Source: Berkelbacteria bacterium GW2011_GWE1_39_12
Lineage (GTDB): Bacteria > Patescibacteriota > UBA1384 > UBA12157
NCBI GenBank assembly: GCA_001029735.1
Contig: CP011213.1
Location: 11,709-75,708 of the forward strand
Reading direction: 5' to 3'
DNA: 64,000 nt
A program made the translations under genes and the position numbers. Below are positions 1,901-49,037 of this stretch, in pieces; the first letter of the stretch is position 1; every line of letters begins with the position of its first letter. Under the pieces are notes generated by a model, which ran no database searches, was not told the origin of the DNA, and saw only the letters and a list, made by a program, of their open reading frames with translations.

Positions 1901-4900
1901 ATGCTTTCTAAAAAATTTATAACTGAATATCAAAAACTGAATCCAAAGCAAAGAGAAGCCGTCGATACGATCGAAGGGCCGGTCATGATTATTGCCGGGC
2001 CGGGGACAGGTAAGACGCAAATCTTAGCGATGAGAATTGCGAATATTTTAGCGAACGCACAAGTTAATCCTTCAAATATTTTGGCGCTAACATTTACCAA
2101 CTCAGGCGCTTACGCTATGAGGAAAAGATTATTGGAAATTGTGGGGCCAAGTAGCTACGCCATTTCTATTCATACGTTTCACTCTTTTTGCAATGAAATT
2201 ATTAATACTTTTCCGGAAAAATTTTTAACAGCCAGACGCTTAAATCAACTGACCGATTTAGAACAAATTCTATATATTCAAAGCATTTTAGATAAAAACA
2301 ATTTCAAAACTATTAAACCTTTAAAAAGTCCTTATTTATATCAAAAGGCAATTTTGGATTCGATTAATAAATTAAAACAAGAAAATATCGATCCAAAAAA
2401 ATTTGAGGAAAAAATCGAGCAAGAACTAATTGATTTTAAAACTATCGATGATCTCTATCACGATAAAGGCGCATACAAAGGCGAAATGAAAGGCAAATAC
2501 AAAGACGAGCTCAGCTCATTAGAGCGCAATAAAGAACTAGCAAAAGTTTACAAAGATTACCAAAAGATTTTAAGCGATGAAGGTAAATACGATTATGCCG
2601 ACATGATTCTTTTTGTTTTAGGCGCCTTTAAAAAAGAAAAAGATATCTTAAGTTATTATCAAGAAAAGTATCAATATATTTTAGTCGATGAATTTCAAGA
2701 CACTAACACGGCCCAGAACGAAATTGTGCGATCTTTGGGCAGCTTTTATGAAAGCCCGAACATTTTTGCTGTTGGCGACGATGAGCAATCAGTCTTCCGT
2801 TTTCAAGGTGCCTCTTTAGAAAACATTTTATTCTTTTCTAAAACTTATCCAGAAGCTAAAGTGATCATTTTAGAAGATAATTACAGATCAACTCAAGACA
2901 TATTAGATTTATCGCGAGCGCTAATTTCTAATAACCAAAATCAAATTGCCGGGCATTTAAAAGTTAGTAAAAAGTTAAAAAGTAATTTAACTTCAAAAGG
3001 AAAAATATACTTAGCAGAATTTAAAAATGTCGCCACAGAAAACTTTTTTATTGCTTCAGAAATTAAGGATCTAATAGAAAAGGGGACCGATCCGAACGAG
3101 ATTGCGGTTTTATATAAACAACATAGCGACGTTGAAGATTTAACTGAAAACTTAGCGCGTTTGAAAGTGCCATATAAATTGGAAGTCGGTGGAAATATTC
3201 TCGACGATCCGGAAATTCAAAAGATTATTAATTATTTAAAAATTTTAGACATTAAAAAGCCTAACGATTTATTATTTTTTGAAGTATTAAGTTATGACTT
3301 CTTTAATATTCCACCAATCGAGATTTACAAACTATCGAGAAAAGCGAGTAAAGAAAGGGAAAGTATAGTCGATACAATACTGTCGGAAAACAAGCTTTCA
3401 GAACCAATCAAAAAGTTTTTTAGCACCTTACTTGACTTGCAACACTTTGCTCAAAATAACACTTTCGCTAGCACTTTCGAATATTTAATTAACAATACGG
3501 GTTATTTAGATTATCTATTGAAAAAAGAAGATACAGTTCACCATTTAAACCGGTTGCAAATTTTTTATGAAGAAATTAAAAAATTGAATGTCAGACAGAA
3601 AGATTTAAATATTGCTGGGTTTTTGAAATACTTAGACAGCCTTACAGAAAATGAATTAAAAATAAAAGATAGGGAAGTCGAAGCAGATTTTGCCGGCGTA
3701 AATTTAATGACGGCGCATAAATCTAAAGGTTTAGAATTTGAAAATGTTTTCATTTTTAAATTAATCGACAAACACTGGGGTAATAAAACAAAACGGGAAT
3801 TAATTAAATTGCCCGGCAATATTTTATCAATTCAGCAAAACAATGACTTGTCCAGCGAAGCCTTGGCGGAGTTGGAAGAGGAAAGACGATTATTCTATGT
3901 TGCACTAACCAGAGCCAAAAAGAATATTTATCTTTCTTTCGCTGATGATTACGGCGATCAAGAAAGTTCAAAGTTTGCAGTTCCATCACAATTTCTTACT
4001 GAATTACCAAATGAAAAGATATTGAAATTGGAAACAGCTAAGTATGAAAAAGAAAGTGTTAAGAGATTGGCATTGGCGTTTCAAAATGACAAATGGCACC
4101 CTGGCAAAGCACTGAAGGAGTTTATTAAGCAAATCGTTGAAGATTTTTCTCTATCGGCAACTTCGCTTAACTCATATATCAACTGTCCAAAACAATTTTT
4201 CCTAGATCATATTATTCGCGTCCCTAAGGCCAAAGATTTTAGCCAAAGCTATGGGACAGCTGTTCATAAAGCGATGGAAAATCTATTTCTCATTCAAATA
4301 CGCGATGGCAAGTTAGCAACGAAATCAGATTTTGTAAAATTTTATGTTAACGCATTAGACGAGGAAATACTGACACCGGCAGAAATACAAAGAGCCAAAA
4401 ACGATGGTACAGAAATATTAGAAAAGTATTACGATTTCTACAAAGAAGAAATGATTAAAAAAGGACCGCCGATTTCTTGTGAGTACAATTTTTCTTCCCA
4501 TAATGTTCATTTTGATAATATACCGATCACGGGTAAAATTGATAAGATTGAAATGATAAACAGCATTGGTAATACTGTCAGAATTATCGATTACAAAACC
4601 AGCCAACCAAAAACAGTTAATGATCTTTTGGGGCAAACGAAGACTAGTGATAAATCATATTTGTATCAAGCGTTTTTTTATAAACTCTTGGCTGAATACG
4701 ACACATCGTTTAAGTGGAAAATTGCCGAAATAGAATTTGATTTTATTCAACCAGAAAAGGGAAGATTTAAAAAGATTAAAATTCCAATTGAGGAAGAAGA
4801 ATATAAAAAATTTAAAGAGCTGGTTTCCAAATCTTATAGCGAAATCAAAAAATTGAATTTTGATACCAATAAAAAATCGTGTAAAGCCAAACGCGAATGT

Positions 4901-4957: not shown

Positions 4958-6085
4958 TTAGTCCTTTAATGGACCGCATTTCGGGTCTTCCGACCCGTGG
5001 AAAACACCAGCCAGTTCTGATCTATTTGAGTAACCAGGCGTAGCGTCGCTCAGCAATGGCCACCCATTGCCGATTCTTGCCCATATCTCGTCCCAGCTGC
5101 GAACGGCGCTCAACGGATCAAGCGCTTCGACGCTACATGAGCTAGCACCATTGGCGAACTGAAGACAAAGTTCAGGTGAAAGCCCCTGTAACATTGCGGT
5201 CAGGAAACCGGCGATCGAGACATCGCCACTACCGTTGGCACTGCCAAAGGTTTCTTCTTTGAAGGGAATACTAATGATTTCTCGTTCCAGCCAGTCATCG
5301 GAGTCTCCGATTACCGAATCTTTAGCTGTTCGCAGGTAAAGACCTTTCGTACCGAGCTTCAACATGACGGCGCCACAACCCCATTCGAGGAACTTATTCG
5401 CCATCATGCCCCAACCATGGTGACCGGTATCATACCTGGCAAAGCACGGCATAATCGACACCATTTCACCAAAACTAGGTGTAAAGATATCGACAAAGGG
5501 CAGTACCTTCCTCAGAATCTTTTCCCAGTCTTGCTTTGCCGTTTCTGAGCGAGGATCGACTTGGACCATGTCCATTGAGATTGTTTTTCCCATACTCTTG
5601 AGTCGACTCAGCATAATGACCGCGTCTCTGCCGTCATCACTATATAAAGCCTTCATGATCGGCAGATAACCGAAATGCACATGATCAATACCAGTTAGCA
5701 AGGCGTAAGGCACATCATCAGCAGTAAAAGTGTCATTGCAGCCGGGACAGTGTAGGAAAGAACGATCACCCTTCGCCGGTACAAGAACAATACTAAACGA
5801 CGTAGGATCCATAGAGTCGATGATGCAACATTCGACATTTGGTTTGTAAGCGTAGAGACCGCGAAGTTGATCGCCAAAAAGGTCTTGACCGATCTTACAA
5901 ACCAGAGTCGTGCCGATACCGATCTTCGCCGCGGCAAGTCCCGTGTTCGAGACAACACCGCCAGCCGACCAAATCGGCGGCTCAACAATCGAGAGTTTGC
6001 CGTGTCGTGGGACCTGGCCAATAATCCTCGGCGTAATATCCAAGCACGCATGCCCTAGCACGGCTAATCGCTTTTTCAAACGCAT
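4958..6085 (-). CDS. PfkB-family carbohydrate/nucleoside kinase (ribokinase-like); GC content far above the local background
   Basis: Ribokinase-like fold signatures including GSGDVSIAGFL (DTxGAGD-type motif); about 55% GC versus about 33% in flanking DNA. Confidence 0.75.
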   Translation of the reverse strand: MRLKKRLAVLGHACLDITPRIIGQVPRHGKLSIVEPPIWSAGGVVSNTGLAAAKIGIGTTLVCKIGQDLFGDQLRGLYAYKPNVECCIIDSMDPTSFSIVLVPAKGDRSFLHCPGCNDTFTADDVPYALLTGIDHVHFGYLPIMKALYSDDGRDAVIMLSRLKSMGKTISMDMVQVDPRSETAKQDWEKILRKVLPFVDIFTPSFGEMVSIMPCFARYDTGHHGWGMMANKFLEWGCGAVMLKLGTKGLYLRTAKDSVIGDSDDWLEREIISIPFKEETFGSANGSGDVSIAGFLTAMLQGLSPELCLQFANGASSCSVEALDPLSAVRSWDEIWARIGNGWPLLSDATPGYSNRSELAGVFHGSEDPKCGPLKD

Positions 6086-6159
6086 TGATACTTCCTCCTC
6101 GTATTTTTCAGGTTCCTAAAACAATTGCATTATAGAGTAAAGCGAGAGCTAAATCAACA

Positions 6160-6885
6160 CTAGATTATTTGATTACTAGCCTTGATCGACACTTCGATAA
6201 TATCAACAGCTTCTCGACGAGTTAAAATAAACAAAATGAGTTCGGCAACATCTTCTGGCTTTAAGATTTTATGCGCTTGATGATAGGCAATCCTATCTTT
6301 TTCGGACATAGTTATGAGATTTGTATCAACAAGACCCGGTTCGATTAAACTTACCTTTATATCATTTATCGCTGGCGATTTTCTCAAAGCTCTGGAAAAA
6401 CCCTCGACTCCAGATTTTTGCGCTACATAGACATCACTACCACCATCGTAAGTGGCGGCCGACATCGAACCTATATTTATAATATGTGCCGACCTGTTTT
6501 GTACCATTCTCTCGTATGCCATTTTTGCACAGCGAAGGTATCCAATAAGATTGGTGGATGTAGTGTAATCAATATCTTCTTCTGAAGTGTTCGTAATCGA
6601 ATCGGCCGGAAGACCCGCATTATTGATCAATATATCGAGCCTACCGAAATTATCATCGATAAATTGAAAAACGCGTTGTAAGTCGTCAAAATTAGTTACG
6701 TCCGCTTTTACGACGTAAATGTTTTCTGAAATTTTATGTAAATCGGTAAGTGCTTTTTCCAATTTTGTTTCATCGCGAGCAAAAATTACAACCGTGGCTC
6801 TTTGCTCTAAAAGAAGCTTTGCAGTTGCAAAACCAATTCCACTCGAACCACCACTAATTAAAATAATCTTATTTTTTATTTCCAT
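6160..6885 (-). CDS. short-chain dehydrogenase/reductase (SDR) family oxidoreductase
   Basis: ISGGSSGIG (TGxxxGxG), NNAG, YVAQK (YxxxK) motifs. Confidence 0.85.
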   Translation of the reverse strand: MEIKNKIILISGGSSGIGFATAKLLLEQRATVVIFARDETKLEKALTDLHKISENIYVVKADVTNFDDLQRVFQFIDDNFGRLDILINNAGLPADSITNTSEEDIDYTTSTNLIGYLRCAKMAYERMVQNRSAHIINIGSMSAATYDGGSDVYVAQKSGVEGFSRALRKSPAINDIKVSLIEPGLVDTNLITMSEKDRIAYHQAHKILKPEDVAELILFILTRREAVDIIEVSIKASNQII

Positions 6886-6947
6886 GTGTTTATGCTAACA
6901 AATATATACTAAATAAGGTTTATAAGTTTTAACAACTCCTGCTCTGC

Positions 6948-6976
6948 TTGACAAATAATTCTATTAGTTTACTATC
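6948..6976 (+). promoter_or_regulatory. sigma70-like promoter (TTGACA-N16/17-TACTAT) driving a transcript with no ORF
   Basis: TTGACA at 6948-6953; -10-like TACTAT near 6970-6975. Confidence 0.4.
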
Positions 6977-6982
6977 GTAGAT

Positions 6983-7182
6983 ACGAGAGCCCTCTCCGGT
7001 ACACAGGCGAATTATATTAACTCGTTTGGTTGTAACCGGATTAGCTCTGAGAGGCCTGGGCGCAAGATTAGTTGTTGTAATATCCCAGAGGGAGTTACTT
7101 TGTCTGAGTCTTGCCATAAACCCAGCCTCTGATATTATTTGTCCATTTAAAAAAACAGCCATAAAACTACGGCTGTTTTTTG
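6983..7182 (+). ncRNA. candidate small RNA (about 200 nt) bounded by a promoter and an intrinsic terminator; family unknown
   Basis: No ATG anywhere in about 200 nt; GC-richer than surroundings with several complementary segments; ends in hairpin ACAGCC/GGCTGT plus U-run. Confidence 0.3.
7150..7182. terminator. rho-independent terminator hairpin flanked by A-run and T-run (bidirectional)
   Basis: aaaaaACAGCCataaaactacGGCTGTtttttt; serves the minus-strand gene 7199-7492 and the plus-strand sRNA candidate. Confidence 0.6.
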
Positions 7183-7198
7183 AAAAAATAATAGGGGT

Positions 7199-7492
7199 CT
7201 ACTTTCTACCGCCAATAGCGTAGAAGTTCAGGGCGCCTATCAACGCGCCGGTGAAAACTACACCACCGATCTGCGCCAAGCCGAGCCATTTCTCGGCGAA
7301 CGGATGCTGGATCAGATACCACTGTTCTACCAAGATGTAGCCTACAACAGAACAAAGGCCTCCAGCAATAGCACCGAAGAGGATACCCACCATATCATTG
7401 GTGGCCAGTCGACTAGCGATTCCAGAAAACAGAATCAAAAAAACTGCGAACCCGAGGCAGCCTGCGACTGACTGAAGCGCTGAAAGTTCCAC
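7199..7492 (-). CDS. small membrane protein, GlsB/YeaQ/YmgE-like (transglycosylase-associated family); GC-rich
   Basis: 97 aa, three hydrophobic segments with Gly-rich GxxxG patterns typical of the family; about 55% GC. Confidence 0.45.
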   Translation of the reverse strand: MELSALQSVAGCLGFAVFLILFSGIASRLATNDMVGILFGAIAGGLCSVVGYILVEQWYLIQHPFAEKWLGLAQIGGVVFTGALIGALNFYAIGGRK

Positions 7493-7596
7493 GATAAGTC
7501 TCCTTTGAGATGTATTTTTGGTCTACGATGGAACGATCAGTTATACCATAAAAAGTAACCTTTGTCAAGAGAAAGAAAAGCTGATAAGATGTAAAT

Positions 7597-8439
7597 ATGA
7601 AGAAAGACGAAATTTTAATTTACCTTCTTGTTGGTTTAATTGTGATTTTTTTGATTAGCTTGGGATATTTTACCTGGCAAAAAAGAAATGTAAAAACAGT
7701 AGCTGCAAATACTTCGGCTGTAGTTAAACCGATTGATATTTTGCCCGAAGTTGGCAAAACAACAAAATATGATGTCCCGGTTTTGATGTATCATTATGTT
7801 CGCATCGCCCCAGAAGGCGACACATTAGGTAAAAATTTGTCTGTTACCCCTCAAAATTTTGTCGATCAAATGGCTTGGCTAAAACAAAATAATTACGCCA
7901 CAATTAAAGTTTCTGACTTAGCCGATCCAAATAAAAAAGAAATTTCTAAAATAATAGCAGAAAACAAAAAACCGATTGCTGTTACTTTTGATGACGGATA
8001 CGAAGATGCTTATATTGCCGCGTACCCCGCTTTACAAAAAGAAGGATTCATTGGCACTTTCTACATTATTCGTGATTTTATCGGTAGGCCTGGATATATG
8101 AACCAAAATCAAATTAACGAATTAGATTTTATCGGTAACGAAATTGGCTCACATACTTTGAGTCATTTAGATTTATCAAAAAATTCAGAAGAAGTTCAAC
8201 AAAAACAAATAGAAGATTCTAAACAGTCGGCAATGTCTTTTTGCTATCCTTCTGGTAAATATAATGAAACGACCGTCAATCTAGTAAAAGAAGCCGGCTA
8301 TACCACTGCCGTGACGACAAAATCTGGAATTGTGAATCAGGATTCCAATCTGTTAGAACTAAAGCGGGTTAGGGTGAATGACGGAAACGCAGAATCATTA
8401 AGGCTAGCAATTGAAAAGGCTTACTCAAATGGAAATTAA
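7597..8439 (+). CDS. polysaccharide deacetylase (NodB-homology domain), N-terminal membrane anchor
   Basis: N-terminal TM helix; TFDDGY motif; His-containing NodB motifs. Confidence 0.8.
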   Translation: MKKDEILIYLLVGLIVIFLISLGYFTWQKRNVKTVAANTSAVVKPIDILPEVGKTTKYDVPVLMYHYVRIAPEGDTLGKNLSVTPQNFVDQMAWLKQNNYATIKVSDLADPNKKEISKIIAENKKPIAVTFDDGYEDAYIAAYPALQKEGFIGTFYIIRDFIGRPGYMNQNQINELDFIGNEIGSHTLSHLDLSKNSEEVQQKQIEDSKQSAMSFCYPSGKYNETTVNLVKEAGYTTAVTTKSGIVNQDSNLLELKRVRVNDGNAESLRLAIEKAYSNGN

Positions 8440-31879: not shown

Positions 31880-32035
31880 TTTAATCCTTTCTCTTTTAGC
31901 CTAATGCATTAGAAGGCTAAAAGACCTAAATTATTAAAGATTTCGACCAAATCTTCCGCTTTCAAATTACTTTGAAAGCAGGAGTTTGGGGGCCGACACG
32001 TAGTCGGCCCGACCAAGATCCCGAAGGATCTAATG

Positions 32036-32831: not shown

Positions 32832-33998
32832 CTACTTTACCTCCATCTCGAAGTTGATATCGTCACCGGGGCAAAGCCCCTTGGAACCGATCGATTCGAC
32901 TTCTGCGTAGATTTTTCCTTGGCTCGCGCTTGTAATCATAGCCGTGGCGGCCTCATAGCCCTTGCGGGTAAAAGTCACCTTCGCACCCTGCTTTATCCGA
33001 CCGTTTACCCTAATGGTGAAGGACGAATGGTCCAGCCCTGTAAGGATAAGGCGGTACTCACCACAGAGAACGTAAATCCTCTTTGATGATGGGGGACGAG
33101 CAACGATTGTCAGCTTGTTATCTGCAACAGCGTAACCATCAGACTTCATGTCGATCCTTGGCTTAGGTGTTTCCACTTTGGGCTGAGGCTGGACAATGGG
33201 TTTCGGTTCTGCAACGGGTGCAGGTTGAGGCTGTGCTACGGGTGTTTGCGACTGAACAATGGGTGCAGGAGCGGTCATCTGGTTCAAGGTTTGCCGCTGG
33301 GCATTCCTCATAGCCAAATAACCAGGATCCGGTAGCGCAGTCGTCGGCTGGAAAGCCGGCGAAAGCATTGAGCACCACTGCTCATCGGTGAAGTTCCAGC
33401 ATTCTTCAGGTGCACTCTGCACCAGAACCTGCTGGACCATACCGTTGGTCCGATTGGAAGTCCAGTTGAAAGGAAGGAAGACAACCGTTAGACGGTTTTT
33501 CTTATCCCGACTTGTAACTTTCCATTCAAACGCATAGCTACCAGGATCAAGATATGGAATCTCAACCTGATAACCTTTTAGTGCCTCTAGCTCGGCGAGC
33601 CAGCAAGTTGCACCATGATCGGGCGTCAGTTCGACCTTCACAACGTGTTCAACGTTGCTAAAATCGCTGTATGCTCGATACACAGGTGATTTTGCGGCTA
33701 CAGCATCTCGAAACATCGACTTGTTCATCACAAGCCGCGGGAACATGTTCGTGGATGAAAACCATGAAGTAATGGGTTGGTAGGTACGTTTGTACTCACT
33801 TCTTCCATCAGCTCCTAAGCATCTCTCGACGCTCTTTCGGCATGCATCCATTCTCGATCCCATCGAGACACCTGCGGCTGATTCCGTGAGTGTCACACCT
33901 CCGCCGACCGAAATGGCCGCATTGGCATAAACACTCTGAGTTACCGCCATGGTGGCGATAACTACTAGCAACATTGCGATAGTTAACGTGCGTCGCAT
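32832..33998 (-). CDS. secreted protein with Pro/Gln-rich linker (388 aa), GC-rich
   Basis: Signal peptide; PxQP repeats in the middle; no recognised family. Confidence 0.55.
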   Translation of the reverse strand: MRRTLTIAMLLVVIATMAVTQSVYANAAISVGGGVTLTESAAGVSMGSRMDACRKSVERCLGADGRSEYKRTYQPITSWFSSTNMFPRLVMNKSMFRDAVAAKSPVYRAYSDFSNVEHVVKVELTPDHGATCWLAELEALKGYQVEIPYLDPGSYAFEWKVTSRDKKNRLTVVFLPFNWTSNRTNGMVQQVLVQSAPEECWNFTDEQWCSMLSPAFQPTTALPDPGYLAMRNAQRQTLNQMTAPAPIVQSQTPVAQPQPAPVAEPKPIVQPQPKVETPKPRIDMKSDGYAVADNKLTIVARPPSSKRIYVLCGEYRLILTGLDHSSFTIRVNGRIKQGAKVTFTRKGYEAATAMITSASQGKIYAEVESIGSKGLCPGDDINFEMEVK

Positions 33999-34176
33999 TA
34001 TTAGGTCCCCTTTCCTCTACTGAATTCTAATTAGCGATAGTTTCTCACCACATTTTTGGGGCGAGAATCAGCCGAAATCTGGGAAGGAGGGGCAGACCAA
34101 TAAAAATAAATTTAATAGGTCACTCTCCACAGATCTCAGCTGGTTCCCACCCACGACTTTTAAAGTCGTAGTAATT

Positions 34177-34203
34177 AAAAAGGAGCTTATAACTCCTTTT
34201 GAA
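34177..34203. terminator. bidirectional terminator downstream of cysS
   Basis: aaaAGGAGcttataaCTCCTttt. Confidence 0.5.
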
Positions 34204-34311
34204 ATACACACCAATATACCACAAACAGACGAGATTGTCAACCCCCTTTCGAGCCAAATTTCTCCATATATTCTTTTTCAACCATATAATTATATGGTTC
34301 AGAGTTCTATA

Positions 34312-40915: not shown

Positions 40916-40921
40916 CCAATA

Positions 40922-40951
40922 ACCCCGATACACATAGTTCGGGGTTTTTTA
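40922..40951 (+). terminator. strong intrinsic terminator
   Basis: AACCCCGAtacacatagTCGGGGTTtttt (8-bp perfect stem plus T6). Confidence 0.7.
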
Positions 40952-40961
40952 GTACTCACCC

Positions 40962-40989
40962 CTTGACAAATCTGAAAATTATGGTATAC
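40962..40989 (+). promoter_or_regulatory. consensus sigma70 promoter TTGACA-N16-TATACT driving an ORF-less transcript
   Basis: Hexamers at 40962-40967 and 40984-40989. Confidence 0.5.
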
Positions 40990-40995
40990 TTGGGA

Positions 40996-41212
40996 GGCCT
41001 TAAAAATTGAATATCTCTCCAGGTTGTAACTGGTTGGAAGTTGATTGAAACCGAACTCTTAAATTTTGGTCAACTTCTTTCCTATTACACTTAGCCCCGG
41101 CTTTGCACTTTAAAATTAAATTGAAGCCGGTCAAAACCTTCGGGTTGGCTCAAGCTCGTAAAGGAGAGGAAAAAAAAGTTGGACCTGCTCGCAAGAGTGG
41201 GTCCTTCTTTTT
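40996..41212 (+). ncRNA. candidate structured small RNA (about 215 nt), family unknown
   Basis: No ATG in the whole unit; hairpins including C(UUCG)G at AACCttcgGGTT, CCGGCTT...AAGCCGG, GAAGTTGA...TCAACTTC; ends in GNRA-capped hairpin GGACCTGCTCgcaaGAGTGGGTCC plus U-run. Confidence 0.35.
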
Positions 41213-41934
41213 TATCGCTTAAAATCTTGATAGAGCTCGCTAAAAATATCGTCGGCTAAAGAAACATAGAATTCATCGAGATCTTTTTTACTAGGCTTAT
41301 TTTTATTGAACGTTACGAAATCGGCATCTTCAATGATAGCCAATGGAGTCTGTTCCGATCCTTCACCCATCGCTAAGACAGCTGTAACGGCTAAGCCGTC
41401 AACTATATTTACTCTTTCAAACTGTAACTTCCGACCAAAAATATCTTCTTTCCCAATATAACTTTTGAGCGGTGAAAACCCGTAAAAGCCGATAGCGACA
41501 CCGAGAACACCACATCTGAGCGGCAATGATCTGCTATCGGTAATAATGACTCCGAAATCTGTTTTATTGTATTTTTTTGATAAGTACTCATAAATTTTCT
41601 TCGCTGTGTTTTGCGGATTTTTCGGCAATAAGATATAATCACCGTTCCCATTGGATTCGTCAATTCCAGCCCCGGAAATAAATGCGTTATGTTTTATGGT
41701 AAGGAGACGATTGTTACAATTTCTTTTGGCGGAGATATGGTCCGCTTCATCTTTTATTAAGAATTCTTTGTCGAGTTCTTTTGAAGCGATACGGTTTTCC
41801 ATTAAGGAAATTATTTTTGAGGTGATAACGATGATGGAATTATCTTTAATTGTTTTTATATATTCATTAAGAAATTGATCAGTTGATAGTTGATTTGCAA
41901 GAATCTTTTTAGTTTTTATAACTTTAATTTTCAT
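41212..41934 (-). CDS. CofE-family (F420-0:gamma-glutamyl ligase-like) protein
   Basis: SGAGIDESN and VIITDS...RCGVLGVAIG...GKEDIFGRKL...LAMGEGSEQTPLAIIED match CofE signatures. Confidence 0.6.
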   Translation of the reverse strand: MKIKVIKTKKILANQLSTDQFLNEYIKTIKDNSIIVITSKIISLMENRIASKELDKEFLIKDEADHISAKRNCNNRLLTIKHNAFISGAGIDESNGNGDYILLPKNPQNTAKKIYEYLSKKYNKTDFGVIITDSRSLPLRCGVLGVAIGFYGFSPLKSYIGKEDIFGRKLQFERVNIVDGLAVTAVLAMGEGSEQTPLAIIEDADFVTFNKNKPSKKDLDEFYVSLADDIFSELYQDFKR

Positions 41935-44249: not shown

Positions 44250-44439
44250 AGGGTAGTCCTTTATATCTATACTTATCTTACCCTCCATCGCTTTTACTGT
44301 AAAACCGACTACGTCGTGTACTTACAGTGCAAGCTCTTGGCGGGTGAAATTGTTTTTTCAACAATTTCAAAAAATCCCCGAGGGGACTGTTGCATACTCA
44401 TTATATGATTAACAAGTCCCATTGTCAAGCCCTTTATTG

Positions 44440-45531
44440 TTAAAAAGTTATCTTTCGATGACGGAGGTAAATACTCTGCAATATGCCGATGGCGGCCATG
44501 TTTGTAATCATCGACGAACCTCCCGACGAAACAAAAGGCAGCGGAATACCCGTCACTGGCATAATACCAAGATTCATACCGATATTTACTAGAATTTGAA
44601 AAAGAAAAATTCCGGCAATTCCCCCGGACAAATACATGCCAAAATTATCTTTCGCTATAACTGCTACGTTAATTGTCCTCATAACCAAAAGGATAAGCAA
44701 GATAATTAAAAAAGTCGAACCAATAAAACCAGTTGCTTCTGCCGTGCCAGCGAAAATAAAATCAGTATGCGAAACAGGTAAAAAGTTTAATTGGCTTTGA
44801 GATCCTTTACCTAGGCCAGTACCCCAAAGACCACCAGAGCCAACAGCAATTTTTGCTTGAGAAACATTATAACCTGTTCCATGTGGATCGGCCGAAGGAT
44901 TTATAAAACTTGTGATTCTAAGCTGTTGGTACGGTTTTAAATAATGCCAACCAAGCGGTGAAATTACCACTGCGATAGCTAAGGCAACAATCAAATATAT
45001 TTTTTTTATTGGAGAAAGAAAAAGAACAGTAAGCAGTCCAATAAATATTACGGAGGCTGTTCCTAAATCTGGCTGGCGTAAAATTAATAAGGTAGGCACT
45101 CCAACCAAAGCCAGAATAAAAATTATTTTCCTCAAATCTAGTTCTTGCCAATCAGAAAAAAACTTAGCGAGAACAATTAAGATAATAATCTTAAAAAGTT
45201 CGGAGGGTTGAAGTTGAAAAAATTTCAAATCTATCCAACGCGTGGCACCAAAACTTTTTGAACCGATCAATAAAACTGCGATCAGTAAAATTACACCAAT
45301 TATATAAAGAACCAGCGAAAGACCTTTAAGTGTGCGGTAATCTAAATACGTTAAAAAGACCGTGGCTGCGATCCCGATTAAAAAAAACTCAATTTGATTA
45401 AGAGCAAGTGTAGAGTTAGTGCCATAACTAATTGAAAAAATGACAGCCGTGCCCAAACCGGTCAATAATAATGGTAATAAAAACAAAGACCAATCTAAAC
45501 CCAGTGTAAATTTGAGACGCGATAGTTTCAC
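44440..45531 (-). CDS. ftsW: SEDS-family peptidoglycan polymerase (FtsW/RodA)
   Basis: 10 TM helices; conserved SEDS loop ...PVSHTDFIFA... Confidence 0.85.
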   Translation of the reverse strand: MKLSRLKFTLGLDWSLFLLPLLLTGLGTAVIFSISYGTNSTLALNQIEFFLIGIAATVFLTYLDYRTLKGLSLVLYIIGVILLIAVLLIGSKSFGATRWIDLKFFQLQPSELFKIIILIVLAKFFSDWQELDLRKIIFILALVGVPTLLILRQPDLGTASVIFIGLLTVLFLSPIKKIYLIVALAIAVVISPLGWHYLKPYQQLRITSFINPSADPHGTGYNVSQAKIAVGSGGLWGTGLGKGSQSQLNFLPVSHTDFIFAGTAEATGFIGSTFLIILLILLVMRTINVAVIAKDNFGMYLSGGIAGIFLFQILVNIGMNLGIMPVTGIPLPFVSSGGSSMITNMAAIGILQSIYLRHRKITF

Positions 45532-48500
45532 TTTTTAACCCCGATCCAAAGATCATCATTATTCAACTTAATATCAATGCTTTGGTCGACTTCTCGACGT
45601 TCAAATTTAATATCAGTTAATTTGGTTTCGTTTTTAATTTCATCCTTAAATTTTTTAATTAAATCAATAATTCCCAAATTACCATCAGCAAATAATTCGA
45701 CTAAATCATCAGGACTATAGCCAGATTTTTTTCTTAAATCTTGAATTGCACGAACAATATCATTTTTCATACCTTCGTCCTGCAATTCTGGTGTGATTTC
45801 TTGATCGATTTCTATTTCTTTGTATCCTGTAAATACTACTTCTTTTACATTTACTTCATCCTCAATTATTTTTTCAAATTCTTCGTCTAATTTTTTACCG
45901 CCGTATTTTAGATATCCAAGCGGCTGTCTAACTTTATATTTCGGTCCAAGCGCCGCACGAGCAGCTAAACCTTGTTCGATAATTACGCGAGTCTCTGACA
46001 TTTTTTCATTTATGCCTTTATTAATTATATCTTCATTAGCCACTGGAAAATTTTCTAAATGAACCGATTCCCTACTGGTCAAATTCTTAAAAATTTCTTC
46101 GGTAGTAAACGGCATAAAGGGTGCCAGTGTTTTTGACAGTTCAACTAAAACAGTATGCAAAGTTTGATATGCGTTGTTTTTATCCTCAGCATTCCCCTGT
46201 TTTTGAAAACGCTTACGTGATCGGCGGATATACCAATTTGAAAGGTTATCAACGAACGGAACAAATAAGCGCGCGGCTTTTGTTAATTCATATTTTTCCA
46301 TATTGGCATTGACATCTTTAATTAACTGGTTTAGTTCCGACAAAATCCACTTATCCAATATGTTTTCAGATTTTGCGGACAATTCAGAATTTTCTTTTGC
46401 TTTAAAATTATCGATATTGGCATAAAGAGTGAAAAACGAATAAGAATTCCAAAGCATTCTAAAGAAGCCTTTGCTAAATTGATCCAAATCTTTTTCTGAA
46501 AAATTTAAATTCTCCGCTTGTAAGATTTGCGATGAAAGTAAATACATGCGCAAAACATCAGCGCCGTATCTATCGAGTACTTCAACAGGATCCGGATAGT
46601 TTTTCAAACGCTTACTCATTTTTTTGCCGTCTTCAGCCAAAACGATTCCGCTTACAATAACGTTTTTATACGCAACACTTTTTTTAATAGACGTAGCGAT
46701 CAAATGTAAATAATAAAACCAAGCGCGTGTTTGGTCTTGGGCTTCGGCGATAAAATTTGCTGGAAAATAATTGGCAAATTTTTCTTTATTTTCAAACGGG
46801 TAATGGATTTGCGCGTAAGGCATTGAACCGCTATCAAACCAAGTGTCTAAAACATCTGGCACACGATGTGCTTCTTTACCGCATTTATCGCAATTAATTG
46901 TGAAATTATCAATTTTATCTTTATGTAAATCAACTATTTGAGCATTCTCATCAACATAGAATGTCTGAACTCCGTTATGATCAAAATCTTCACGATCGAA
47001 GTATTCATCCAGCTTACAATCGTTTAAAATTTTATTCATGGAAGCATTTGTACCGCCATGGCCAACAATTAGAATATTTTTACCGGCGTATTTTTTAGCA
47101 ATTTCTTTCAGAAAATTTTCAATTCGATCAACTACTTCTTGACGATTTTCTCCAGTAGTTCCAAATTTACAGTTAAATCTTTCTTCCAAGGTCTTTAAAG
47201 CTTTATAACTTTTATAGCTTTCGTCTTCTTTGAGTAATTCTTCTTTTGATGTATCATTCCATGAGCCAAATTGGTTTTCAGTAATGCGGTCGTCGAAAAT
47301 TAATTCAGTCTGTAATTTTTTATTGATAATCTCTGCCGTTTGTTTGGTTCTTAAAACTGGCGAACTAATAATCAGATCAATGTCTTTTAATTTATCAGCG
47401 CCATTTTCTGCTTGGACCTTCCCCTTTTCCGTTAATGGAAATTTATCTAACGAATGTGAACTAATTTTTAAAACATTTTTTTCACTTTCGCCGTGACGAA
47501 CAAAACTTATTTTGGTGATTTTTTGATTTGTCTCTTTTCTTAAATCATCCATTGAGCCAAAAACTTTAATTTCACCACATCCGCCATGCTCGGCGGAACA
47601 TCGCCACAAAGGAATAACCGAAGCCCAATAACGCTGGCGTGAAATTGACCAATCTCTAGCACCTTCCAACCATTTTCCAAATCTGCCTTCTTTAATGTGT
47701 TTTGGCGACCAATTAATTTCTTTGGCTAAATTCAATAAATCAGGCTTTACTTTGATAACGTTAACAAACCAGGATGACGTCGCGTAATTTAACAAAGGAG
47801 TTTCACAACGCCAACAATGCGGATAAGAATGTTCGTATTTTTCTTTAGAAAAGAGCAAATTTCTTGAAGCTAAATTCTTAATAATTTCTACATCTGTTTT
47901 CTGAACATCTTCTGGATGTTTAACATGCATACCAGCAAATTGTTTAACCTCAGGCTTAATAATACCGTCCATACCGATGTGCTGTACAAACGGCAAATTT
48001 TTCTTTTTTCCTAAATTTAAATCGTCTTCTCCAAATGCTGGTGCAATGTGAACAATACCAGTCCCCTCTTCGGTTGTAACAAAAGGAGCATCTACAATCT
48101 TCCAACCGTTGTTACTGTTTTCGATTTCCAAGTCTTTATAATCACGATACAACGGATCATATTTTTGACCGATTAGTTCTTCGCCAGGAAAATCTTCCAA
48201 TTTTTCAAATTCTCTATCTTTAAAAACATCGGCTAATCTGTTTTTAGCTAAAATATATTTTTCCGATTCACCAGTATCTTCGTTTTGTGATTGAACTTTA
48301 ACATACTCAATGTCTTTTCCGACCGCTAATGCTACATTGGCGATTAATGTCCATGGAGTAGTTGTCCAAGCAAGGACGAAGGTCCCCTGTTCATCGATTA
48401 GCTCAAATTTGGCGGTAGCAGATAAATCTTTGATTGTCTTATAACCTTCAGTTACTTCTGATTGAGATAGAGTTGTTTCGCAGCGCGGGCAGATATGCAT

Positions 48501-49037
48501 TGATCTATAGCCTTCATAAACCAAATCTTTATCGTACAGCTCTTTAAAAACCCACCAGACTGATTCCATGTATGAAAAATCCATAGTACGATAAGCGTTT
48601 TTCATATCAACCCAGCGGCCTAGTTTTGGAATAATTTTTTCCCATTCATCTACATAGCCCAAAACTTTATCACGGCAAATATTATTGAATTTATCAATGC
48701 CTAAATCTTCGATTTCTTTTTTATGAGTGATTCCAAGTTCTTGCTCAGCAATATTTTCAATCGGAAGGCCGTGACAATCCCATCCCCAAATACGATCGAC
48801 TTGAAAACCCTTCATTGTGAAAAATCTTGGCACCGCATCTTTGGCAACACTTTGAACTAGATGCCCATAATGAGGAGTTCCGGTCGCAAACGGCGGGCCA
48901 TCGTAAAAACTAAATATTGGTGAGCCTTTGCGATTTTCAATAGATTTTTTAAAAGTATCGTTTTCTTGCCAAAAGTTTAAAATCTCGTTTTCGATCTCTG
49001 GCAATTTAACTTGGGAGTCAATTTTTTTATAACTCAT
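45528..49037 (-). CDS. ileS: isoleucine--tRNA ligase, eukaryote/archaeal-like type 2, carrying an inserted histidine-phosphatase (PGAM-like) domain of about 190 aa
   Basis: PFATGTPHYGH (HIGH), KMSKR; CP1 editing motif WTTTPWTL; insertion residues about 508-698 with RHGES, SSPVLRTKQTA, ENQFGSW, LIVGHGGT between the WRCSAEHGGCGEI and DLHKDKIDNFTINCDKCG...VPDVLDTWFDSG segments. Confidence 0.9.
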   Translation of the reverse strand: MSYKKIDSQVKLPEIENEILNFWQENDTFKKSIENRKGSPIFSFYDGPPFATGTPHYGHLVQSVAKDAVPRFFTMKGFQVDRIWGWDCHGLPIENIAEQELGITHKKEIEDLGIDKFNNICRDKVLGYVDEWEKIIPKLGRWVDMKNAYRTMDFSYMESVWWVFKELYDKDLVYEGYRSMHICPRCETTLSQSEVTEGYKTIKDLSATAKFELIDEQGTFVLAWTTTPWTLIANVALAVGKDIEYVKVQSQNEDTGESEKYILAKNRLADVFKDREFEKLEDFPGEELIGQKYDPLYRDYKDLEIENSNNGWKIVDAPFVTTEEGTGIVHIAPAFGEDDLNLGKKKNLPFVQHIGMDGIIKPEVKQFAGMHVKHPEDVQKTDVEIIKNLASRNLLFSKEKYEHSYPHCWRCETPLLNYATSSWFVNVIKVKPDLLNLAKEINWSPKHIKEGRFGKWLEGARDWSISRQRYWASVIPLWRCSAEHGGCGEIKVFGSMDDLRKETNQKITKISFVRHGESEKNVLKISSHSLDKFPLTEKGKVQAENGADKLKDIDLIISSPVLRTKQTAEIINKKLQTELIFDDRITENQFGSWNDTSKEELLKEDESYKSYKALKTLEERFNCKFGTTGENRQEVVDRIENFLKEIAKKYAGKNILIVGHGGTNASMNKILNDCKLDEYFDREDFDHNGVQTFYVDENAQIVDLHKDKIDNFTINCDKCGKEAHRVPDVLDTWFDSGSMPYAQIHYPFENKEKFANYFPANFIAEAQDQTRAWFYYLHLIATSIKKSVAYKNVIVSGIVLAEDGKKMSKRLKNYPDPVEVLDRYGADVLRMYLLSSQILQAENLNFSEKDLDQFSKGFFRMLWNSYSFFTLYANIDNFKAKENSELSAKSENILDKWILSELNQLIKDVNANMEKYELTKAARLFVPFVDNLSNWYIRRSRKRFQKQGNAEDKNNAYQTLHTVLVELSKTLAPFMPFTTEEIFKNLTSRESVHLENFPVANEDIINKGINEKMSETRVIIEQGLAARAALGPKYKVRQPLGYLKYGGKKLDEEFEKIIEDEVNVKEVVFTGYKEIEIDQEITPELQDEGMKNDIVRAIQDLRKKSGYSPDDLVELFADGNLGIIDLIKKFKDEIKNETKLTDIKFERREVDQSIDIKLNNDDLWIGVKK

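Follow-up and report, generated by a model that had tools for sequence, protein, structure and literature searches.

Within the window, as we call the whole 64-kb stretch of DNA that was analysed, a 313-nt gap separates an SDR gene (6160-6885, minus strand) from a gene for a 97-aa membrane protein (7199-7492, minus strand), and it was between these two genes that an earlier note, made from the sequence alone, had placed a candidate small RNA. The source of the window is the closed genome of Berkelbacteria bacterium GW2011_GWE1_39_12 (915,059 bp), and the same sequence was found also in the MAG GCA_003509005.1. In the public record (GenBank), the interval is assigned to a minus-strand hypothetical protein of 62 aa (AKM81839.1). 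The 97-aa gene is convergent to the RNA and encodes a predicted three-helix membrane protein; it has a strong Shine-Dalgarno sequence (AAGGAG) and a GC content of 0.50, compared with 0.39 for the genome, and among 5.8 billion proteins no homolog of its product was detected but itself (an ORFan). Regarding the SDR gene, no close relatives were found among 185,579 GTDB species genomes, which contained distant SDRs only (27-42% identity). The next gene downstream of the RNA encodes a polysaccharide deacetylase (7597-8439) with many Berkelbacteria orthologs at 50-65% identity, and belongs to a deacetylase-RluA-Gmk operon. The features of the interval are as follows, L097 being the contig that carries a homolog of the RNA:

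6939-6956, plus strand: conserved promoter-proximal block including the -35 hexamer, an 18-nt run identical in L097
6948-6953, plus strand: -35 hexamer TTGACA, from the promoter scan
6970-6975, plus strand: -10 hexamer TACTAT, from the promoter scan, with an inferred start at ~6981-6983
6986-7048, plus strand: hairpin 1, from the MFE folds of window and L097 taken separately
6986-6990 with 7044-7048, plus strand: helix P1 (AGAGC with GCTCT), which closes P2, from the MFE fold
6995-7010 with 7022-7040, plus strand: helix P2, with an internal loop CNCT/TTA, a bulged A and a 2-nt bulge, from the MFE fold
7011-7021, plus strand: tip of hairpin 1, variable between window and L097
7050-7130, plus strand: hairpin 2 (P3), from the MFE folds of window and L097
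7050-7055 and 7057-7060 with 7121-7124 and 7125-7130, plus strand: conserved base of P3 (AGAGGC and TGGG with CCCA and GCCTCT)
7062-7114, plus strand: distal arm of P3, variable in the alignment with L097
7131-7149, plus strand: A/U-rich tail between P3 and the terminator, with GAnATTATTT conserved in the alignment
7150-7160 with 7171-7181, plus strand: intrinsic terminator, AAAAAACAGCC and GGCTGTTTTTT around a 10-nt loop, with an 11-bp stem
6929-7162, minus strand: ORF of 77 aa, from the ORF list and also predicted by gene callers
7026-7223, plus strand: ORF of 65 aa, from the ORF list

The promoter consists of TTGACA, a 16-nt spacer and TACTAT, with 10 of 12 matches, and it lies at 6948-6975 as had been proposed, the spacer previously given as 16 or 17 nt being the shorter of the two. 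The transcription start at ~6981-6983 was deduced from spacing alone. Sites of the form TTGACA-N16-18-TAnnnT number 11 on both strands of the window (128 kb), and at least six of these, the RNA promoter included, are located in intergenic gaps of at least 120 nt, which represent ~6% of the sequence. As such matches are rare and concentrated in intergenic gaps, they are likely to be true promoters in this organism. Downstream of the -10 hexamer, between 6976 and 7182, the plus strand contains neither ATG nor GTG, TTG being the sole such codon present, so the absence of ATG over ~200 nt that had been pointed out earlier extends to GTG. The GC content of the RNA core (0.47-0.48) is higher than those of the window (0.39) and of the adjacent spacer (~0.29), although it does not exceed that of the neighboring 97-aa gene (~0.50), and consequently the claim that the element is richer in GC than its flanks holds only in part.

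Folding of positions 6982-7186 of the plus strand gave -72 kcal/mol (z = -6.5), with 0 of 200 shuffled sequences folding as well, and the z-score was still -4.8 once the terminator was left out. Similarly low z-scores were obtained at several other intergenic regions of the window, and the minus strand folds nearly as well as the plus strand, so that the strand is not fixed by thermodynamics alone. The complementary stretches that had been noticed earlier turned out to be the strands of helices P1, P3 and the tip of P3. In the window, a 4-bp hairpin is predicted within the A/U-rich tail, but it is not conserved, and the tail is unpaired in the L097 fold. A pseudoknot between the apical loop of P3 (AGAGGG) and CCCTCT at 6991-6996, possible in the window, is impossible in L097 and was discarded. 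The terminator hairpin (7150-7181) was overlooked by a simple terminator scan because its 10-nt loop exceeds the limit of 8 nt used in that scan. It is the canonical terminator that the earlier note had described, except that its T run comprises six residues and not seven. This hairpin is accompanied by an A run, which makes it bidirectional, and it follows the stop codon of the convergent 97-aa gene at a distance of 17 nt.

A search for homologs of the RNA was carried out on the contigs of eleven Berkelbacteria deacetylase orthologs, all but one of them at the DNA level. The sole homolog found was that of contig L097, the closest relative (deacetylase 63% identical in protein), where it sits between the stop codon of a UvrD/PDDEXK helicase-nuclease gene and the start of the deacetylase gene. 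The C-termini of the UvrD/PDDEXK orthologs of window and L097 are 71% identical, and the third codon positions of the deacetylase genes are 48% identical. Against this value, window and L097 share identical runs of 18 nt (6939-6956), 15 nt (6992-7006), 24 nt (7031-7054) and 13 nt (7120-7132), by which measure the RNA is conserved far above neutral expectation. In L097, the promoter reads TTGACA-16-TAGATT at the aligned position, with a TG ahead of the second hexamer. Its terminator has the homologous stem ACGGCC/GGTCGT followed by seven T residues, and displays a compensatory change from A-U to G-C.

An independent fold of the L097 RNA (-61.5 kcal/mol, z = -5.7) reproduced the topology of the window RNA down to its bulges. 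The 31 core pairs, 21 in hairpin 1 and 10 in the conserved base of P3, are without exception present in the two species. Two core pairs have changed, one on both sides in P2 (G.U to U-A) and the other on a single side in P3 (C-G to U.G). With two sequences in which 29 of 31 core pairs are invariant, the covariation test provided one compensatory core pair, a value that was reached by 248 of 500 shuffles. The tip of P2 differs between window and L097, and in place of the distal 53 nt of P3 the L097 RNA has an unrelated, perfect 8-bp helix (GTTGGAAG/CTTCCAAC), with a net deletion of 25 nt. Such behavior of the tips, together with the compensation in the terminator, is as expected for an RNA. The case for the structure is nevertheless a thin one, made up of the folding energy in two species, the exchange of helices at the tips and the contrast between conserved helix bases and variable tips. 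As to whether conservation occurs at the level of nucleotides or of protein, a check that the earlier note had proposed, promoter, helix bases and terminator are all retained in L097, and the conservation is thus one of nucleotides and structure.

Neither of the two overlapping ORFs appears to be a gene, in agreement with the earlier view that they are spurious. The 77-aa ORF of the minus strand is broken in L097 into pieces of 23-27 aa, and on the plus strand the conserved block CCCAGCCTCTGA is read in different frames in the two species, whose ORFs share residues solely where the nucleotides are identical. Moreover, the 25-nt indel between window and L097 is not divisible by three. A HMMER search with the 77-aa ORF among 1.84 billion representative proteins returned only itself and a translated tandem repeat, so that the test for a small protein gene found neither a reading frame conserved in L097 nor protein homologs. 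A six-frame search for spurious translated ORFs on homologous RNA genes produced 8000 word candidates, none of them at an E value of 10 or better.

Covariance models of the element, hereafter type A, built from the single sequence and from both, were searched over 609 kb of the loci compared here and matched only the window and L097. The signature patterns of type A are CCGGATTAGCTCTGAGAGG, CTCTCCGGTACACAG and CCCAGCCTCTGA; the first of these had no matches in viral contigs, and blastn against phage and plasmid collections gave no match either. Regarding known families, the 4227 models of Rfam 15 gave no hits at gathering threshold over the whole 64-kb window, which contains no tRNA gene either. 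A permissive Rfam search of the interval returned only noise (best score 19 bits against a threshold of 70, E >= 1.3), and the L097 homolog had no hits at E values up to 5, which settles the Rfam comparison that had been suggested. ARAGORN detected neither tRNA nor tmRNA in the window or L097. A full-text literature search on small RNAs in Berkelbacteria or in this genome yielded nothing relevant.

The earlier inability to match SRP, RNase P, tmRNA or 6S motifs by eye agrees with the results of Rfam, ARAGORN and folding. Both homologs are made of two adjacent hairpins in the MFE and centroid structures, without the closing stem or central bubble of a 6S RNA, and the RNA starts 3-5 nt ahead of P1, so that its 3' tail has no 5' partner strand, unlike that of 6S. 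An SRP (4.5S) RNA was rejected, as the hairpin tips are variable where domain IV would be conserved and there was no Rfam match to SRP. The same applies to an RNase P RNA, for which there was no Rfam match at E values up to 10 and whose long-range helix is absent from the 165-nt two-hairpin core, and to a tmRNA or tRNA-like RNA, in view of the ARAGORN results. Likenesses to C/D-box, H/ACA, hammerhead and tRNA D-arm motifs, seen by eye, were incomplete and lacked Rfam support. A link to a defense system was also discarded, the only matches being generic ones of the UvrD helicase to GajB models.

Two observations favor the plus strand. The promoter is conserved, and the helices contain G.U pairs, in P2 of both species and in P3 of L097, that a transcript of the opposite strand would carry as A.C mismatches. 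The relation of the RNA to the deacetylase operon was examined through the sequences that precede the deacetylase gene. In four lineages, this gene is preceded by a promoter-like -10 hexamer with a TG before it (TGnTAnnnT or TGnTAnnAT), ending 6-7 nt before the ATG and with no Shine-Dalgarno sequence, which suggests that the deacetylase mRNA could be leaderless. These promoter-like -10 sites are located as follows:

window, 7562-7599
L097, 396-421
L101, 1190-1210
L102, 4252-4272

Given that the deacetylase has a promoter-like -10 element of its own and, in the window, lies beyond a convergent gene, the RNA constitutes a transcription unit by itself. Inspection by eye of the window and L097 revealed no conserved alternative (antiterminator) pairing, and these three observations speak against a terminator-type riboswitch or attenuator. 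Relative to L097, the 97-aa gene looks like an insertion that separates the RNA from the deacetylase gene. Likewise, a PfkB-family kinase gene (GC up to 0.59) and the SDR gene (4958-6885, minus strand) lie between the UvrD/PDDEXK gene and the RNA promoter and, in comparison with L097, L012, L015 and L102, appear to have been inserted there. From this comparison of gene orders, the RNA and its promoter would have come through both insertions intact.

The gap between the UvrD/PDDEXK and deacetylase genes is a slot in which other Berkelbacteria also carry ORF-less units, in the same orientation. Two further types of structured RNA were recognized there:

L012 5588-5975: type B, ~350 nt
L015 5152-5530: type B
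L016, gap 3959-4428: type B
L099 1-215: type B, 3' part
L101 ~903-1180: type C, ~250 nt, multi-branched
L102 ~3971-4240: type C

Type B is equipped with a promoter of its own and with a conserved hairpin resembling a terminator (CCCGCCAG...CTGGCGGG), and in a consensus fold of two sequences 12 pairs display compensatory change; a CCUCCUU-like pyrimidine stretch was also observed ahead of its terminator. Type C is closed by a helix GGGGAYGG/CCGUCCCC, followed by ACC or GCC, and has a TTGACA promoter and a terminator. A P0055 contig with a 339-nt gap in the slot was listed with type C, being known from the gap alone. The TTGACA -35 hexamer is present in all type B and C loci except L015. No Rfam or ARAGORN matches were found for types B and C. 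These two types resemble type A in slot, orientation, a terminal hairpin of terminator type and the lack of an Rfam match, but they are of ~250-370 nt and multi-branched whereas type A has a ~165-nt core with two hairpins, and there is no sequence similarity. In fact, types A, B and C are mutually dissimilar (z ~0), and the covariance model of type A misses the B and C loci.

In five Berkelbacteria loci (L013, L017, L018, L098 and L100) there is no RNA upstream of the deacetylase gene, two of them (L098 and L100) keeping the helicase-nuclease gene immediately upstream, and the type A element is therefore not universal in the phylum. A metagenome scan with the deacetylase alignment gave, among the matches listed, mostly distant phyla, and two Berkelbacteria loci of different synteny. 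The three types may be functional equivalents, the outcome of a turnover of unrelated small RNA genes, or lineage-specific leaders. That the slot is a dedicated RNA-gene site, with types A, B and C as structurally unrelated and functionally equivalent members of a fast-evolving, abundant RNA class specific to the CPR and missing from Rfam (for example, an RNA subunit or regulator of a conserved protein), is an unlikely and speculative idea. The slot RNAs suggest a small set of lineage-specific RNAs deserving a survey with covariance models.

Several other regions of the window attracted our attention. At 40963-41215 (plus strand) there is another ORF-less promoter/terminator unit, in which TTGACA-16-TATACT is followed by ~225 nt and a GGACC...GGGTCC-T terminator. 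The gap in which it lies (40916-41211) shows strand-specific structure, with z = -4.2 for the plus strand compared with -1.6 for the minus strand. This unit is dissimilar to types A, B and C, and no plus-strand gene follows it. On the minus strand, a TTGACA-17-TATATT promoter (34241 to 34213) precedes a structure of -97 kcal/mol over the 313 nt of 33999-34311, upstream of the gene at 32832-33998; it gave no Rfam hit at gathering threshold and, from its predicted fold, could possibly be a structured leader or an RNA gene. Low folding z-scores were also found at 44289-44439 (minus strand, z = -7.0), which has a TTGACA-17-TATAAT promoter, and at 31880-32035 (z = -10.5 on the minus strand), which contains a row of four near-perfect hairpins. 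Finally, the gene at 45528-49037 (minus strand) encodes a class I aminoacyl-tRNA synthetase of 1169 aa (tRNA-synt_1 and Anticodon_1) in which a His_Phos_1 domain (residues 511-701) is inserted in the catalytic domain.

The locus in the SDR/97-aa gap is very probably a real structured small RNA gene, previously undescribed and mis-annotated as a hypothetical protein, because it has been kept nearly unchanged in a second, distant species. The stand-alone small RNA gene proposed at the outset is supported by a promoter and a terminator of its own, by the lack of a conserved ORF and by the sequence and structure kept in L097, these being the generic attributes of such genes. With a probability of about 0.6, we favor the reading that this gene produces an independently transcribed, non-coding RNA of ~200 nt from the plus strand, which would be a folded particle acting in trans, most probably by offering a platform to which a protein binds. 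A sigma-70-type promoter (6948-6975) would start transcription near 6982 and the intrinsic terminator would end it at 7181, and the transcript would fold into two adjacent long hairpins followed by the A/U-rich tail and the terminator hairpin. What stays invariant between species would be the lower half of each hairpin together with their junction, with the tips free to vary. The conserved matter amounts to ~95 nt and includes both strands of the lower hairpins and the junction (CNCU/UUA internal loop, bulged A and single G linker). Since this is mostly base-paired sequence and not a single-stranded seed, it argues for a folded trans-acting particle rather than for a simple antisense seed, and such an RNA would bind a protein in trans. 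Transcription, the strand (from the promoter and the G.U pairs), the action in trans and the protein partner are what we infer in this scheme. Against the favored reading, the terminator could belong to the convergent 97-aa gene, the comparison comprises two sequences with 29 of 31 core pairs unvarying, and the minus strand folds nearly as well; in addition, the CU-rich stretches (CTCTCC and GCCTCTGA) and the A/U-rich tail also fit a base-pairing small RNA.

Such a base-pairing RNA would be of the antisense type, acting in trans through the pairing of the pyrimidine-rich CTCTCC (6993-6998), GCCTCTGA (7125-7132) or the A/U tail with purine-rich ribosome-binding regions, while the hairpins would serve for stability only. 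The promoter, the terminator, the A/U-rich stretch by the terminator and the 200-nt size are typical of this kind of RNA, and in a duplex scan of the start regions of 54 window genes, with the median as its only control, the best duplexes of both CU-rich segments reached ~-20 kcal/mol against a median of -9 to -11 and involved the same few genes (starts 58524 and 61669). However, these top duplexes look like generic pairing to purine-rich start regions, and for the deacetylase 5' region the pairing does not surpass that obtained with shuffled sequence. Furthermore, both stretches are paired within P1, P2 and P3 in the two species, and both strands of the long helices are conserved, which would be needless for a seed. 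We consider this mode of action unlikely, though deserving of some weight. Decidedly improbable, in our opinion, is a cis-regulatory leader of the deacetylase-RluA-Gmk operon, i.e. an attenuator sensing a protein or a ligand in which the terminator is regulated and read-through transcribes the operon. The arrangement in L097, where the element immediately precedes the deacetylase gene, is co-oriented with it and has its T tract ~26 nt from the ATG, is the one that such a leader would have, and at this position L012, L015, L101 and L102 also have structured RNAs with a terminator hairpin. Nevertheless, in the window, L097, L101 and L102 the deacetylase ATG has a -10-like hexamer with TG 6-7 nt ahead of it, no conserved antiterminator pairing was seen on inspecting both sequences, and no Rfam riboswitch or leader family matches. 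The window also has the convergent 97-aa gene and 415 nt between terminator and operon with the RNA still fully conserved, and the occurrence of three unrelated RNA types at one operon is unlike a ligand-binding aptamer.

It may also be asked if the RNA is a strongly diverged ortholog of a housekeeping RNA, 6S-like or similar, and the same gene as the longer slot RNAs of other Berkelbacteria. RNAs such as 6S keep their shape and not their sequence, and the same syntenic slot and orientation with consensus promoters in three lineages would agree with it. Still, we regard it as very improbable: there is no pairwise similarity among the three types (z ~0), the type A model finds nothing in the B and C loci, and the two side-by-side hairpins of type A differ from multi-branched folds closed by a GGGG/CCCC helix. 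Nor is there a 6S-type closing stem or central bubble, a weak Rfam match to 6S, SRP, RNase P or tmRNA, or a tmRNA according to ARAGORN. Scarcely credible, finally, is the absence of any RNA gene, which would leave either a small protein gene (the 62/77-aa ORF of the minus strand or the 65-aa ORF of the plus strand) or a spacer that contains a promoter match arisen by chance and the terminator belonging to the 97-aa gene. The GenBank entry AKM81839.1 and the gene-caller prediction of the 77-aa ORF point in this direction, as do the promoter-like matches that abound in AT-rich DNA (in 2.5 kb there were 11, with 6.4 expected). However, the ORFs are broken or frame-shifted in L097 by the 25-nt indel and lack homologs, and a mere spacer would not hold 24 identical nt at 48% third-position identity nor keep a conserved promoter block.

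Bacteria of the candidate phyla radiation have tiny genomes and are thought to retain only essentials, and to our knowledge almost nothing has been reported on their non-coding RNAs. If the favored reading is true, the annotation of a closed reference genome would be corrected from a hypothetical protein to a structured RNA, and a concrete candidate would be at hand for metatranscriptomic and biochemical work. A single orphan small RNA is a modest finding, the weight of which would rise if the slot RNAs form one functional class.

In terms of known systems, the RNA very probably belongs to a familiar kind, the bacterial stand-alone small RNA, and is kept in at least two distant Berkelbacteria species. 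With 6S RNA (RF00013) it shares a similar size, a strong consensus promoter that suggests high expression and, in the mechanism favored here, the action of a folded RNA via a protein partner. Unlike type A, with its two side-by-side hairpins and no cmscan hit to 6S at E values up to 10, 6S RNA has a closing stem formed by its ends and a central bubble. The trans-acting, Hfq-dependent small RNAs of Enterobacteria are likewise stand-alone, intergenic units of ~200 nt with a consensus promoter, stem-loops, an A/U-rich stretch by a U-tailed terminator and no ORF, but type A conserves ~95 nt of mostly paired sequence at the bases of two hairpins instead of a short single-stranded seed, and matches no Rfam small RNA. 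From terminator-type riboswitches and ribosomal-protein leaders it differs in that the gene downstream has its own promoter, no antiterminator was found, the window copy is uncoupled by a convergent gene and no cis-regulatory Rfam family matches. The L097 element resembles them in lying upstream of an operon, in the same orientation and with a terminator near the start codon. Ribosomal-protein leaders differ in structure between phyla, and the unrelated structures that they place at the same operon in different lineages find a parallel in the Berkelbacteria slot.
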